A DNA stretch of 64,000 nt from Candidatus Babeliales bacterium (GCA_963716425.1 OY970310.1:1670807-1734806); one strand, 5' to 3'; counted from the stretch's first letter, positions 1,944 through 52,815 are shown. The notes: generated from the letters alone by a model not told the origin. Translations and numbers: made by a program.

Positions 1944-2609
1944 ATGTTTAAAATGATTAAAAAAATAGTAGTACTTTTTACCCTGTTTACTAGTTCACCT
2001 CTAGTATCCATGGAACCAGTAGAGGATATTACTCTTGAATCAGCACAACTTGCATCCTTATCAAGTAAAACACGCAATCAAAAAGTCGCGCGGGCTATTG
2101 TATCTGTTTTGGGACGCCTATCGTTAAGTTCTCTAACAGATCATAATAATGTTGATGAACTATTGTCTGCTTGCGTAGAACCACAGAGCACTAAAATTAT
2201 TTTAGGCTCATCTACCAAGACAGTATTCGTTTGTGGAACTGCAGGTATCACTAGAGAAATGGTGGATTTAATGCCAAAGAATGTTCATGATCACATAGCT
2301 GCTCACCATTTTACCCGTATTTGTAGCGGGTCGTTACCTGAAAATCTTATTGCAGATGCTCGTGCTGCCAAACTCTCTATGTGGGATGTAGATGTTCTTA
2401 AGAAACTTGAGAATCTATCTACAACCCAAGCTCAAAATATATGGAAATTATTGCAAAATACTGCCAATAACGAACAAACTGATAAAGTAAAAGTACAATT
2501 ACAGCTTTATCGGTTACTTAACCCTCGATTCACGTGGGGAAAAGTCGCTCTGGTAAGTACTCTTGCGGCCCTTGGTTATCTAACCTACATATTGATGTCA
2601 CTGGAGTAG
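1944..2609 (+). CDS. hypothetical membrane-anchored protein (221 aa)
   Basis: N-terminal leader MIKKIVVLFTLFTSSPLVSM-EP, a variant of the window-wide x-M-D/E leader. C-terminal hydrophobic helix VALVSTLAALGYLTYILM. Confidence 0.5.
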   Translation: MFKMIKKIVVLFTLFTSSPLVSMEPVEDITLESAQLASLSSKTRNQKVARAIVSVLGRLSLSSLTDHNNVDELLSACVEPQSTKIILGSSTKTVFVCGTAGITREMVDLMPKNVHDHIAAHHFTRICSGSLPENLIADARAAKLSMWDVDVLKKLENLSTTQAQNIWKLLQNTANNEQTDKVKVQLQLYRLLNPRFTWGKVALVSTLAALGYLTYILMSLE

Positions 2610-2634
2610 TTTATCAAGAAGAATAATTTAAAGT

Positions 2635-3933
2635 ATGGAGAAATGCATGAAGCCTAACTTTCCAATCGATCAAGTCTATACCTATCTTCCTAAGACAAAA
2701 AATATTCCATTAAAAGGCGATGCCCATTGTGATGTGGTGATTATTGGTGGTGGCATGGCGGGCATTTCTGCAGCACAAAAGTTTAAAGAAAAAGGGTGCT
2801 CTGTCATTCTAATTGAAAAAAGTTTTTGTGGGGCAGGAGCGAGTGGCAAAAGTTCTGGATTTATTACCCCAGATTCAGAAATACCACTTCATGCACTTAT
2901 TGATCGCCTTGGCATAGAAAAAGCAAAAGGCATGTGGGATTTTGTGCAAATGGGTGTGGATGCAATAAAAAACAACATAGAAACACACGGCATTGCCTGT
3001 GATTATCGCACAGAAGATACCTTGGTACTTGCAGGCTCTCTTAAAGATTTTAATACCATGACAATAGCGGAACATCAAGCGCGCATTGCATGCGGCTACC
3101 AAAGTACATTGTATCAAAAAGATGAATTAAGCAAGGTTGTTGGCGCGCAAGGCTTTTATGGCGCAATACGCTATGGCAACACATTTGGCATTAATGGATA
3201 TCAGTATCTGCAAGGTGCCAAAGCTATACTCCAAGATTCTGGCGTTTCTGTGTTTGAAGAAACACCTGCGATAGCACTAGAACCACATAAAGCGATAACC
3301 CCTTATGGGACTATTACAGCAAAATATGTAGTGCTTTGCACCGACAGATTTATCCCGGAGCTACACAAGTTAACATATGAAATTTTTCCCATTCAAACGT
3401 TCTTAATGATATCAGCCTCTCTTTCTGACGTTGATGTTAAAGCAATATTCACCCAGTCTCCTATGATGGCATGGGACACTGCACTCATTTATACCTATTT
3501 TAGAATCACAGCTGATAATAGATTAATGGTTGGTGGGTCTACGCTTTTGGGAACATATGCAGGTTATGCGCAGCATGATAATGTACATGGTTTTTCACGA
3601 TTGCAGAATTATGTTAACGCACGGTTTCCATCCGTGAAGCCTCAATTTGAATATATGTGGCCAGGATTAATTGGCGTGAGCAAAGATATTTTACCTCTTG
3701 CAGGAAGAGACGCTCAAGACCCATCGTTGTATTATATTGGAGCCGCTGCAGGGTTGCCTTGGGCAGCAGCATTAGGCTGCTATGCTGCCGACTCACTTAT
3801 TGATGGGCGCACTGATTATGATGTTAGCTTTAACCCCTATCGCTCATTTAAGTTTGGGCGAGGTGTACAAACAATTTTGGGAAATAGATTAACGTTTGCT
3901 TTGTCTCATGTTACCACGTTGAGCAGTTTTTAA
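2635..3933 (+). CDS. FAD-dependent oxidoreductase (DAO family-like)
   Basis: N-terminal Rossmann dinucleotide motif DVVIIGGGMAGISAAQKFKEKGCSVILIEK (GxGxxG plus acidic end of beta-2). The 432-aa length and layout are typical of DAO-type flavoenzymes. Confidence 0.8.
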   Translation: MEKCMKPNFPIDQVYTYLPKTKNIPLKGDAHCDVVIIGGGMAGISAAQKFKEKGCSVILIEKSFCGAGASGKSSGFITPDSEIPLHALIDRLGIEKAKGMWDFVQMGVDAIKNNIETHGIACDYRTEDTLVLAGSLKDFNTMTIAEHQARIACGYQSTLYQKDELSKVVGAQGFYGAIRYGNTFGINGYQYLQGAKAILQDSGVSVFEETPAIALEPHKAITPYGTITAKYVVLCTDRFIPELHKLTYEIFPIQTFLMISASLSDVDVKAIFTQSPMMAWDTALIYTYFRITADNRLMVGGSTLLGTYAGYAQHDNVHGFSRLQNYVNARFPSVKPQFEYMWPGLIGVSKDILPLAGRDAQDPSLYYIGAAAGLPWAAALGCYAADSLIDGRTDYDVSFNPYRSFKFGRGVQTILGNRLTFALSHVTTLSSF

Positions 3934-51471: not shown

Positions 51472-51501
51472 GATTGAACTGCTTTCATGTAGATTTTTTC
51501 T

Positions 51502-52815
51502 TCACAATAATATATTACGAATATTCTGCTCAATACCAGCTCTATGTTGTTCAACTTGCGCAGGATCAAGTACTGTACGCACTTCTAGTTTAATATCCAT
51601 TCGCTTAAGCCGATGCACAAACAAATCTACACTATAATGATCTAAAAGCCACCTACTTGAAAGCAATTCAGAAACATTACTCATTCTATGCTGCACTATT
51701 AATGGGACCAACTGTTCAAAAAATTGAGATCTTTGTGCTTGCTCTGATTTTTGATACATTTGTTTAAGCCAAGAAAATCGACAGTGAGGCACCAACTGCT
51801 CCAATGGTATTCCTTTATCGAGTAACCACGCACCATGATTTTGAGTACACACATCTTGCGGCATACGACTTAAAAGTAAAAACTGAACATCCCGTGCTAG
51901 CTTAAATCGCTTAAACAAGCATAAAGTTGTAAGTACCCGTTTTTGCCGGGCCGTAATTTCTGTTTTGGTAGGTTCAAACAATGCATTTTGCAAAAACATA
52001 CGTAATGCAACGTGATCACCGCTTAGAATTGCATACTGAAATATGCTGCCTTCTATTACTTGATTAAATTCATCAACGTCAATATCACCATCACTTGCAT
52101 TAATGGCAGCTCCATGCGCAAGAAGCAAGGAAATCATTTTAGGCCCATTTGGCGTTTTAGCTTGATATATAGCAGGCAATACACTGTATCCGCGGTTAAC
52201 ATCAGCGCCACAGGACAACAAGAGATCTACCTTTTCACTATTGCCCTTACAAGCAAGTGAACTTAAAAGGGTATATCCTTGCGCGTTGAGCGCATCAATA
52301 TTAATACCAGATCTTTGAAGCATCTGAATCATTGCTCGAGGCTTAGCTGAATTAATTGCAAAAGTCAGTGATTTATAATGATCATCAGGAGCAATATGCA
52401 TAAGAAGTAATAAAGCCAATTCATTGCGATGTTCCTCTGCAAGAGTGTTAAACAGCTTTTGCCCGCGCCTCTCTCTCAATGAATCACCACATGATCCACA
52501 AAATAATTTAGGTAATTGAAAATACCCCGCATAGAGATACTCAAATACCTCAACTCTAAGATCATCTCGCTTAAGCCTTGCTTGTTGAATCGCACGTTTA
52601 TGTGCTAACTCACGCTCACAGAACTGGTTGCTATTAAAAGCTCTTGCCAACCAAGTTGAAAAATTTGGCACGGGATAAAGCTGAAGAAGACGCGGAATTG
52701 TTTGCTCAGGTTTCATGGGATACAAATAAATAACGTTACAAAGGATTACAAGAAATAGTACAGCGCGATAAAAAAAAATCATAATACACTCACTTGGCTT
52801 GCTAACAATACTCAT
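51502..52815 (-). CDS. ankyrin-repeat protein with degenerate C-terminal F-box-like module (437 aa; start uncertain)
   Basis: Leader ...FLVILCNVIYLYPM-KP. ANK unit NAQGYTLLSSLACKGNSEKVDLLLSCGADVN. The C-terminal module FKLARDVQFLLLSRMPQDV...CRFSWLKQMY...LDPAQVEQHRAGIEQNIRN is colinear with its two neighbours. Confidence 0.85.
   Translation of the reverse strand: MSIVSKPSECIMIFFYRAVLFLVILCNVIYLYPMKPEQTIPRLLQLYPVPNFSTWLARAFNSNQFCERELAHKRAIQQARLKRDDLRVEVFEYLYAGYFQLPKLFCGSCGDSLRERRGQKLFNTLAEEHRNELALLLLMHIAPDDHYKSLTFAINSAKPRAMIQMLQRSGINIDALNAQGYTLLSSLACKGNSEKVDLLLSCGADVNRGYSVLPAIYQAKTPNGPKMISLLLAHGAAINASDGDIDVDEFNQVIEGSIFQYAILSGDHVALRMFLQNALFEPTKTEITARQKRVLTTLCLFKRFKLARDVQFLLLSRMPQDVCTQNHGAWLLDKGIPLEQLVPHCRFSWLKQMYQKSEQAQRSQFFEQLVPLIVQHRMSNVSELLSSRWLLDHYSVDLFVHRLKRMDIKLEVRTVLDPAQVEQHRAGIEQNIRNILL

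Follow-up and report, generated by a model that had tools for sequence, protein, structure and literature searches.

The DNA analysed here, called the window, is a stretch of 64,000 nucleotides from a Candidatus Babeliales bacterium (GCA_963716425.1, OY970310.1:1670807-1734806), a member of the Dependentiae (TM6) of the amoeba-parasite type with a GC content of ~40%. Between positions 1944 and 52815, 20 of its genes encode proteins with a hydrophobic N-terminal leader that ends, as a rule, in a small residue, followed by Met and an acidic or polar residue. These leaders are genuine signal peptides that obey a class-specific rule: the residue after the predicted cleavage point (+1) is always Met and the next one (+2) is nearly always Asp, Glu, Gln or Lys. 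This rule is much firmer than the mechanism proposed for it below. Housekeeping genes of the window (L9, DnaB, RuvC, IleRS, MurD, FtsW and an M17 aminopeptidase) alternate with many ankyrin repeat (ANK) genes, three pseudopilin-like genes, a Fic protein, a PT-HINT/Ntox37 toxin and many orphans. The DnaB protein, encoded at 22641-24026 on the minus strand, shares 92% identity with its counterpart in the assembled genome Babeliales CA_2019_TPIn_124 (L002) and 61-72% with those of other TM6/Babeliales genomes; the same protein is also present on a contig of over 1 Mb and on a Logan contig.

Leader genes were named by their lower coordinate in the window (e.g. 51502 for gene 51502-52815). Hydrophobic N-termini were found with a rule-based detector, which searched the first 60 residues for an uncharged 9-residue window of high hydropathy; the cutoff for this hydrophobic (h) region was a mean Kyte-Doolittle hydropathy of at least 1.7. 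The motif was scored as [AGSCT]-M-[DEKQNH] where the h-region ends. The related material comprised ~250 kb of Babeliales DNA and ~60 genes of Babela massiliensis. The latter were taken from the supplementary open reading frame (ORF) table of Pagnier et al. (PMC4378268), and all statements on Babela genes below refer to this part of the table. Two genomes of the same genus (L002 and L084) provided syntenic orthologs. Five lineages (L003, L085, L087, L089 and L091) have a DnaB identity of 72-74%, and L004 of 69%. As a control, 73 non-Dependentiae loci of unrelated bacteria (1.25 Mb) were run through the same pipeline.

The initial annotation of the window had listed 15 genes with a strict Ala-Met end and five variants, and all were reproduced by translation. 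In these 20 genes the leader starts with Met and 1-3 basic residues, continues with an uncharged hydrophobic run and ends with a small residue, the conserved Met and then D, E, K, Q or H, over 19-33 residues. The coordinates given here for each leader include the Met codon, and a slash marks the junction between positions -1 and +1. Five carriers are orphans without ANK repeats. Gene 1944 (leader at 1944-2012, plus strand), with a weak cupin match in Pfam, begins with MFKMIKKIVVLFTLFTSSPLVS/MEPVE, an S-M-E variant. The 186-residue orphan 4268 (4268-4828, minus strand; leader at 4757-4828) has an AAGGAG Shine-Dalgarno core before the leader start and a leader that ends in VVFQSQA/MKQPS (QAM-K). 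On the plus strand, the 121-residue orphan 7924 (7924-7983) and the 145-residue orphan 8304 (8304-8369) have leaders ending in NFNMIA/MDVLQ (IAM-D) and YFQCLA/MDKKD (LAM-D). Both follow a leaderless Fic/DOC-domain protein in the block 6787-8741 (plus strand), where the stop at 7923 abuts the ATG at 7924. The 335-residue orphan 14573 (14573-14647, plus strand) has a GTG start, two transmembrane (TM)-like segments and the end FNYLHA/MEPVL (HAM-E).

The remaining 15 carriers have ANK repeats. Six lie on the plus strand. The leader of 16607 (16607-16678) ends in GASTQA/MKQPK (QAM-K; L084 ortholog VVHG/MKAPK), that of 17463 (17463-17534) in LHTAQA/MDAST (QAM-D) and that of 18622 (18622-18684) in PTHYYA/MHNIL (YAM-H; L002 ortholog SNAQA/MAKEI). 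Gene 20026 (20026-20097) has NNITLA/MEPVD (LAM-E; orthologs KAQA/MEAVY and LLIC/MEKEK), and the gene call in L001 also begins at the leader ATG. The leader of 21210 (21210-21272) ends in VQLVHA/MDTAM (HAM-D; L002 ortholog NMQA/MDHML). In 31611 (31611-31679; SATASA/MQHTF, SAM-Q) the first ANK repeat starts 5 residues past the Met. The other nine lie on the minus strand: 10901 (leader at 11459-11527; MFSAQG/MEKIG, G-M-E); 11524, with a TM-like segment after the leader (11995-12063; SSTSLG/MDSIP, G-M-D; orthologs STLG/MDYIP in L002 and TTHT/MDSVP in L084); 24572 (25226-25294; AVRIKA/MEAEV, KAM-E; orthologs LLCA/MDASI and LFQA/MEVGI); 25284 (26829-26903; ISCALA/MDKQP, LAM-D; orthologs LTLA/MDRTK and LGMT/MDGSV); 26918 (27521-27604; SFSLCA/MDSEQ, CAM-D; orthologs SAYA/MNSEE and VIQG/MQSES); 39536 (41096-41164; VSPIYG/MQQNL, G-M-Q); 48143, with TM-like segments (49727-49795; AMPACA/MEPGE, CAM-E); 49942 (51409-51471; SALLDA/MDVEQ, DAM-D; homologs LLHA/MDHEQ in P0001 and LLTA/MDREQ in P0002); and 51502. 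The long leader of this last gene (52714-52815; VIYLYP/MKPEQ, P-M-K) has Pro at -1, against the rule for signal peptidase I (SPase I), and the database gene call P0188 begins at its internal Met.

The initial annotation had also counted 15 leader-bearing proteins among 16 with ANK repeats. Pfam assigns ANK repeats to 15 leader genes, as claimed, and the sixteenth ANK ORF (4042-4299, plus strand) is a leaderless remnant of 85 residues. It runs into the 3' end of gene 4268-4828, which lies on the other strand, and is probably a pseudogene fragment. One doubtful leader that had not been listed earlier was found in the LigD_N 3'-phosphoesterase gene 43608-44258 (leader at 44205-44258, minus strand). 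It reads MWYLVLVLISFVGEMQA/MTKKR, lacks a positively charged N-terminal (n) region and has Shine-Dalgarno cores before both ATGs. This extension could represent a nascent leader, a spurious one or an ORF called too long. In the block 42886-44258 (minus strand), the LigD 3'-phosphoesterase domain stands alone in its gene, which shares one base with an MBL-fold gene, and the 17-residue hydrophobic in-frame extension of the LigD gene ends in QA/M.

Architecture and class restriction of the leaders

The claim that the leaders are translated was borne out by their start regions. A Shine-Dalgarno core of at least 4 nt lies before the leader start in 14 of 21 genes (the 20 listed and 43608). Before the internal ATG such a core was found in 1/21, the doubtful LigD_N gene, in agreement with the earlier observation, made on a selection of cases, that the internal Met is not preceded by one. 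On a Logan contig, independent gene calling likewise puts the start of three leader genes at the leader ATG. At the base composition of the window, the probability that 20 in-frame extensions of ~22 codons all stay free of stops by chance is ~4e-13. An artefact of over-extended ORFs was rejected because of the Shine-Dalgarno positions, the n-h-c architecture and the stop-codon statistics. Upstream of the 20 leader genes, no shared promoter or nucleotide motif was found beyond Shine-Dalgarno cores.

The net charge of the first 8 residues (n-region) is at least +1 in 20/21 leaders, the exception being 43608. Every leader passes the hydropathy window, and the length is 19-27 residues in 19/21, with outliers of 33 and 17. 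In 58 instances from the window and its relatives, position -1 is occupied by A (39), G (10), S (3), C (3), T (2) or P (1). Position -3 is mostly L, A, I, T, C, M, V or S, position -2 is bulky (Q, H, L or Y), and there is no conservation past +2. This is the classical -3/-1 pattern of a Sec/SPase I architecture, in line with the signal-peptide-like segment noted initially, and it puts the predicted cut right after the small residue, with the Met at +1. No lipobox Cys was found at +1 among the leader genes, where +1 is always Met; lipobox-like ends do occur in other genes of the window, e.g. 41347 (IASGC/G). No twin-arginine (Tat) motif was found in the 21 leaders, none of which contains RR, and no type IV prepilin-type leader (G/F with Glu at +5) among the leader genes; such leaders are present in the neighbouring pseudopilin-like genes at 28121-29043. 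On the best reading, the leaders are translated and represent Sec-type signal peptides of the ordinary kind, with a predicted SPase I site.

Prepilin-like N-termini of the form G/F-x-x-x-E (QPG/FFVSE, EG/FLCIE) were found in the three pseudopilin-like genes (27705-29043, minus strand), which have leader-bearing ANK genes on both sides. Their presence suggests a type II secretion or type IV pilus-like apparatus. The trio is divergent from 29044-31455 (plus strand), which encodes a low-complexity, Lys/Glu-rich exported protein of 803 residues. The 803-residue family has no Pfam match, save a weak DnaJ match on the L090 ortholog. The block of pseudopilin and 803-residue genes recurs across Babeliales loci together with its linkage to IleRS, MurD, L9, DnaB and RuvC.

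The motif was found in 19 of the 45 leader-like N-termini of the window, vs 1.15 expected from tripeptide frequency in the mature regions of the same proteins (P = 7e-19). In the unrelated bacteria (73 loci) it was found in 9/351 N-termini, none of them a plausible cleavage site (Fisher P = 8e-14). The enrichment in ANK proteins over other exported proteins, expected from the initial annotation, was clear within the window: all 15 leader-bearing ANK proteins carry the motif, vs 5/24 of the others (P = 8e-7). The five non-ANK carriers are the orphans described above. Exported proteins of the window without the motif include the M49 peptidase, a GDPD protein, a chagasin-family inhibitor, a TolB-like protein, the PT-HINT toxin, the conserved 803-residue protein and a Gly/Tyr-rich cluster. 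Housekeeping exported proteins had been described as using ordinary A-x-A ends. This was only loosely right. It stood for the ends LFA/AP, VEA/V, VEA/T, SEA/K, VHA/A, GFA/H and ILA/Q; it did not for the chagasin-like inhibitor, which looks lipoprotein-type (SGC/G), and the GDPD and M49 sites are ambiguous. The first mature residues of the housekeeping leaders, read by eye, are Y, A, A, G, D, D, V, T, K, A, K, H and Q, with no avoidance of degrons.

Conservation of the Met and spread across Babeliales

The ANK and orphan genes evolve fast. In the syntenic orthologs of L002 and L084 they are 31-68% identical, vs 88-92% for L9, DnaB and RuvC. The Met is present in 18/18 ortholog pairs; flanking positions are 6-33% identical, position -1 is 50% identical and position +2 is 67% identical, in an alignment anchored on the Met, so that the 18/18 shows the presence of the motif in each ortholog and not an independent alignment. 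Each ortholog leader ends in a small residue, Met and a polar residue. Neither V nor L (GTG/TTG) was found in place of the Met in 20 orthologs. Overall, the leaders of orthologs have diverged too far to be aligned for dN/dS. By this sequence comparison, the Met is under purifying selection. The ANK islands themselves (10901-27604) vary in gene content among the same-genus genomes, and L002 and L084 have extra ANK genes of 600-700 residues beside L9.

Position +2 is constrained as well. D, E, Q, N, K, H or R occupies it in 55/61 curated instances (background 34%), a bulky hydrophobic residue in 2/61 (background 24.5%) and a small residue (A, G, S, T, C, P or V) in 4/61 (background 39%). At +3 the small-residue class is at background again. 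In a collection made without any condition on +2, D/E/Q/N/K/H/R was found in 49/64 instances. At the real start codons of the window, the next residue is Lys in 16/44 and Glu in 3/44.

The rule had been taken as lineage-specific. It is indeed restricted in this way, and the lineage is broader than first thought, as it covers Babeliales including Babela massiliensis. The motif was found in 16/29 leader-like N-termini of same-genus loci and in 11/60 of the five lineages with a DnaB identity of 72-74%, and it is also present in L004 and L174. At the related loci it occurs on ANK, RING-finger, zinc-finger (zf-C2H2) and no-Pfam proteins, and is absent from S8, S41, M49, GDPD, thioredoxin and TolB-like proteins. 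Four paralogs arranged in tandem at L087 (416-4424), of which one gives a faint zinc-finger match, have near-identical leaders (CWA/MVDVEDAPF, GRA/MLEVEDAPF, CWA/MGEEAS). They are the only group with a hydrophobic or small residue at +2. P0003 (SWA/MDD), a candidate instance from outside the phylum, was treated as a chance match; it lies on a contig of 54% GC among unrelated neighbours.

In Babela massiliensis (27% GC), the motif was found in 8/12 leader-bearing ANK proteins vs 2/14 other exported proteins. The ANK sites are CLLS/MEVDK, NIIC/MESLE, NIIS/MENQD (three paralogs), NFVS/MGKPN (a fourth paralog), NLNG/MQLDT and HLSA/MRKSK. The two other carriers are a protein with leucine-rich repeats (LRR) (SAYS/MLLDT) and an orphan (FIHP/MQINS), and none of the 12 remaining non-ANK exported proteins has the motif. 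Position -1 is mostly Ser in the Babela sites. A Kozak-like context (GCN-ATG-GAN, with G at -3 and +4) had been considered for the conserved codon; it was dropped because a Ser codon (TCN) before the ATG puts T at -3 and the Met is still kept. Overall, the rule holds for the fast-evolving ANK, RING, zinc-finger, LRR and orphan proteins of Babeliales and fails for housekeeping periplasmic and envelope proteins.

Homologs of single leader genes were few. A search with 49942 gave just two true relatives (P0001 and P0002), the remainder being generic ANK proteins, and a search with 1944 matched 1944 itself only. A profile of the N-domain of 49942 and 51502 matched 7 proteins among 1.84 billion representatives. 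With so few homologs, the 1944 and 49942/51502 families are too narrow for the Met to be traced over deep divergence. A metagenome scan with the TolB-like family alignment gave two loci only, duplicates of L007 and L008, and Babeliales were not found in the viral-contig scans.

Possible meaning of the Met N-terminus

From the sequence-supported features (the class- and lineage-specific motif, translation of the leaders, the SPase I context and selection on the Met) we infer a mechanism of cleavage, export and benefit in the host. The precursor would be exported via SecYEG and cleaved by LepB between the small residue and the Met. The mature protein would then leave the cell, probably by the type II secretion apparatus (the pseudopilin genes at 27705-29043 lie among ANK genes), and would arrive in the host cytosol bearing Met-(Asp/Glu/Gln/Lys), unformylated, at its N-terminus. 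Met-aminopeptidases take off Met only where a small residue follows. In the eukaryotic cytosol many unacetylated N-terminal residues are destabilising; the GASTC/N-degron pathway recognises G, A, S, T and C, and the Pro/N-degron pathway recognises P (PMC11441550). A Met-(D/E/Q/K) end should not be a substrate of the Arg/N-, GASTC/N- or Pro/N-degron pathways and should resist trimming by Met-aminopeptidase. With D, E, Q, N, K, H or R in second place, a Met end would mostly be a NatB-type substrate and, given the N-degron lists and the specificity of Met-aminopeptidase, would be nearly the sole N-terminus that is neither trimmed nor a known degron. The Met would most likely shield the protein from N-terminal degradation or trimming by giving it a non-degron, untrimmable, eukaryote-like N-terminus. 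The +2 spectrum is compatible with the eukaryote-like Met-Asp/Glu end imagined in the initial annotation. For the whole chain, from translation of the leader through the cut at A/M, type II-like release and entry into the host cytosol to a protective Met N-terminus, the chances of being right and wrong seem to us evenly balanced.

Several points weigh against this chain. The cleavage sites are predictions from the -3/-1 rule. Stability alone would permit Val at +1, yet Met is invariant. TM-like segments follow the leader in several motif proteins, which may never reach the host cytosol. The bacteria may lie free in the host cytosol or in a vacuole. The Met is kept with Pro at -1 in four cases, namely 51502 (YLYP/MK), gene 4810-5781 of L174 (LMHP/ME), gene 616-972 of L085 (NLFP/MI) and Babela gene 114 (FIHP/MQ); these lie outside the specificity of SPase I and so should not be cut by it, and no explanation covers them well. 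One ANK protein of L087 has a leader without the Met, as have the Babela ANK genes 104, 105, 182 and 185; an ANK protein can therefore be exported without obeying the rule. The motif was not seen in L005-L008 and L090, which are small samples. Finally, the conserved 803-residue protein lacks the Met in the window, whereas its L085 and L091 orthologs have it, which makes the class boundary fuzzy.

Four other explanations were weighed. The Met may be a linear sorting tag: after the SPase I cut, the free Met-(Asp/Glu/Gln) would be read by an export machinery (the type II apparatus, vesicle loading or a dedicated factor) and would set host cargo apart from periplasmic residents. Such a tag accounts for the class restriction as well as protection in the host does. 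A simple mark would suit hundreds of fast-evolving cargoes, and the strict invariance of the Met suits recognition more than mere stability. However, nothing is conserved past +2, the Met is missing from some ANK proteins, and the residues at +2 (D, E, Q, K, H, N and R) have little in common save being neither small nor bulky hydrophobic, which suits host Met-aminopeptidase and N-degron rules more. Type II secretion is not known to rely on any linear N-terminal signal, and a tag of this kind is considered unlikely. The broader idea that Met at +1, together with an acidic or polar +2 residue, forms a two-residue code marking host-directed cargo, either by hiding Sec/type II effectors from host N-degron pathways and aminopeptidases or as the first linear tag of a type II-like pathway, is plausible but tentative, and we lean against it. 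Another enzyme might also explain the Met, namely a dedicated second signal peptidase (a LepB paralog or other protease) with a Met-specific S1' pocket, for which the Met would be a mark of specificity. Dedicated signal peptidases exist elsewhere, e.g. SipW of Bacillus subtilis. The two leader classes within one genome, the strict invariance of the Met and the variants with Pro at -1, which hint at a non-classical enzyme, would fit; no such gene was found in the window or the related loci, the -3/-1 pattern is classical, and very little credence is given to this enzyme.

The two remaining explanations take the conserved codon as a start codon, in use or abandoned. The initial annotation had offered dual initiation, with exported and cytosolic isoforms, as its second reading. 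The invariant ATG would then be a second start that yields, beside the exported precursor, a leaderless cytosolic isoform identical to the processed protein. The conserved residue is exactly an initiator codon, and it persists with Pro at -1, where SPase I should not cut. SD-independent initiation exists here, since about one-third of the window genes have no Shine-Dalgarno core; a core does precede the internal ATG of 43608, and the database gene call for 51502 begins at the internal Met. This reading nevertheless found little support. The internal ATG has no Shine-Dalgarno core in 20/21 genes, Met-Asp/Glu is atypical beside the Lys-rich position 2 of the real starts counted above, no replacement by GTG or TTG was seen in the orthologs, and a role as start codon does not account for the small residue at -1 and the aliphatic one at -3. 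No other secretion system is known that could make use of a cytosolic ANK isoform. Dual initiation is judged improbable. Alternatively, the proteins may once have been leaderless, perhaps taken over from eukaryotes, and may have acquired leaders when the frame was extended upstream into hydrophobic-coding DNA; the Met would be the old start and now without function. The Met at the junction and the mutual dissimilarity of the leaders agree with such a history, and 43608 (LigD_N) resembles a snapshot of it. A neutral Met would, however, have decayed, yet it was kept in every ortholog pair beside poorly conserved flanks and throughout Babeliales as far as the Babela genes, and +2 is constrained too. 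A relic can account for the origin of the Met and not for its maintenance; as a full explanation it is highly improbable.

Protection of exported effectors in the host, the explanation preferred here, can be set beside known systems. In Babela massiliensis, 79/126 ANK proteins have predicted signal peptides and type II is the only secretion system detected (PMC4378268); in Chromulinavorax destructans, 78% of the ANK proteins have predicted signal peptides (PMC6561590). Secretion of these proteins into the host was inferred in both papers. They belong to the same phylum and share the architecture of Sec leader and ANK repeats with the window genes. A conserved residue where the leader is cleaved is reported in neither paper: the words 'methionine' and 'cleavage site' do not occur in the Babela text, and the Chromulinavorax paper is silent on +1. 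No description of a +1 Met / +2 acidic rule was found in the literature searched; both the rule and the fact that it is confined to ANK and orphan proteins appear to be new.

The nearest formal parallel is the Q-rule of Bacteroidetes (PMC5837995; PMC10653852), likewise a lineage-specific +1 rule for Sec/SPase I substrates, which determines the N-terminal chemistry of the mature protein and raises stability. There, Gln at +1 is turned into pyroglutamate by glutaminyl cyclase in most SPase I substrates of the phylum, whereas the +1 residue here is Met, without a known modifying enzyme, and one class only is concerned; the Q-rule serves as an analogy only. As a concept, the nearest parallel is PEXEL of Plasmodium (PMC10900883; PMC8016102); PEXEL and TEXEL of Toxoplasma (PMC6212819) also mark host-directed effectors of intracellular parasites, with an acidic or polar residue beside the new N-terminus. 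They differ in belonging to eukaryotic parasites and in being cut by aspartic proteases of the endoplasmic reticulum at RxLxE/Q/D downstream of the signal peptide, whereas here the parasite is a bacterium and the motif is the SPase I site itself. The RxL of PEXEL/TEXEL is absent after the leaders, and the likeness is one of analogy only.

Listeriolysin O is a Sec-secreted N-end-rule substrate, in which a destabilising residue limits toxicity. The reverse is proposed here: a non-degron N-terminus would be chosen throughout an effector class. Common to listeriolysin O, the N-degron pathways (PMC11441550) and the present case is the notion that the half-life of a bacterial protein in the eukaryotic cytosol is decided by the residue that cleavage of the signal peptide leaves exposed.

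Dependentiae are widespread, nearly all are uncultured parasites of protists with very large ANK repertoires, and Babela has type II secretion only. If the rule marks host-directed proteins, it would make it cheap to pick out candidate effectors by sequence in hundreds of metagenome-assembled genomes and would predict the effector repertoire of a mostly uncultured phylum. It would be a bacterial counterpart of the mature-N-terminus requirement of PEXEL-type export and, after the Bacteroidetes Q-rule, a second example of lineages tuning the residue exposed by signal peptidase. It would also offer a natural test of whether eukaryotic N-degron pathways shape the N-termini of bacterial effectors. 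As the rule is visible in the cultured Babela massiliensis, it is directly testable in Acanthamoeba.

Other exported proteins of the window

A cluster of small secreted Gly/Tyr/Ser-rich proteins (52912-54648, minus strand) has the classical ends VEA/V, VEA/T and SEA/K; Babela genes 9 and 10 are similar Gly/Tyr/Trp-rich genes. The secreted PT-HINT/Ntox37 toxin (37013-37726) in the block 36156-37726 (minus strand) has a leader ending in AQA/GF, without Met. It is followed by two paralogous ORFs of ~100 residues (36696-37007 and 36156-36458) without a Pfam match, an arrangement that resembles a polymorphic toxin with immunity genes. At 58594-60120 (minus strand) lies a thioredoxin reductase-thioredoxin fusion with an N-terminal TM segment, and at 60717-63446 (plus strand) a 909-residue AAA ATPase with an ordinary signal peptide (ILA/QDTP). 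These two recall families of Babela, namely TM-anchored TrxB (gene 4) and signal-peptide-bearing AAA ATPases.

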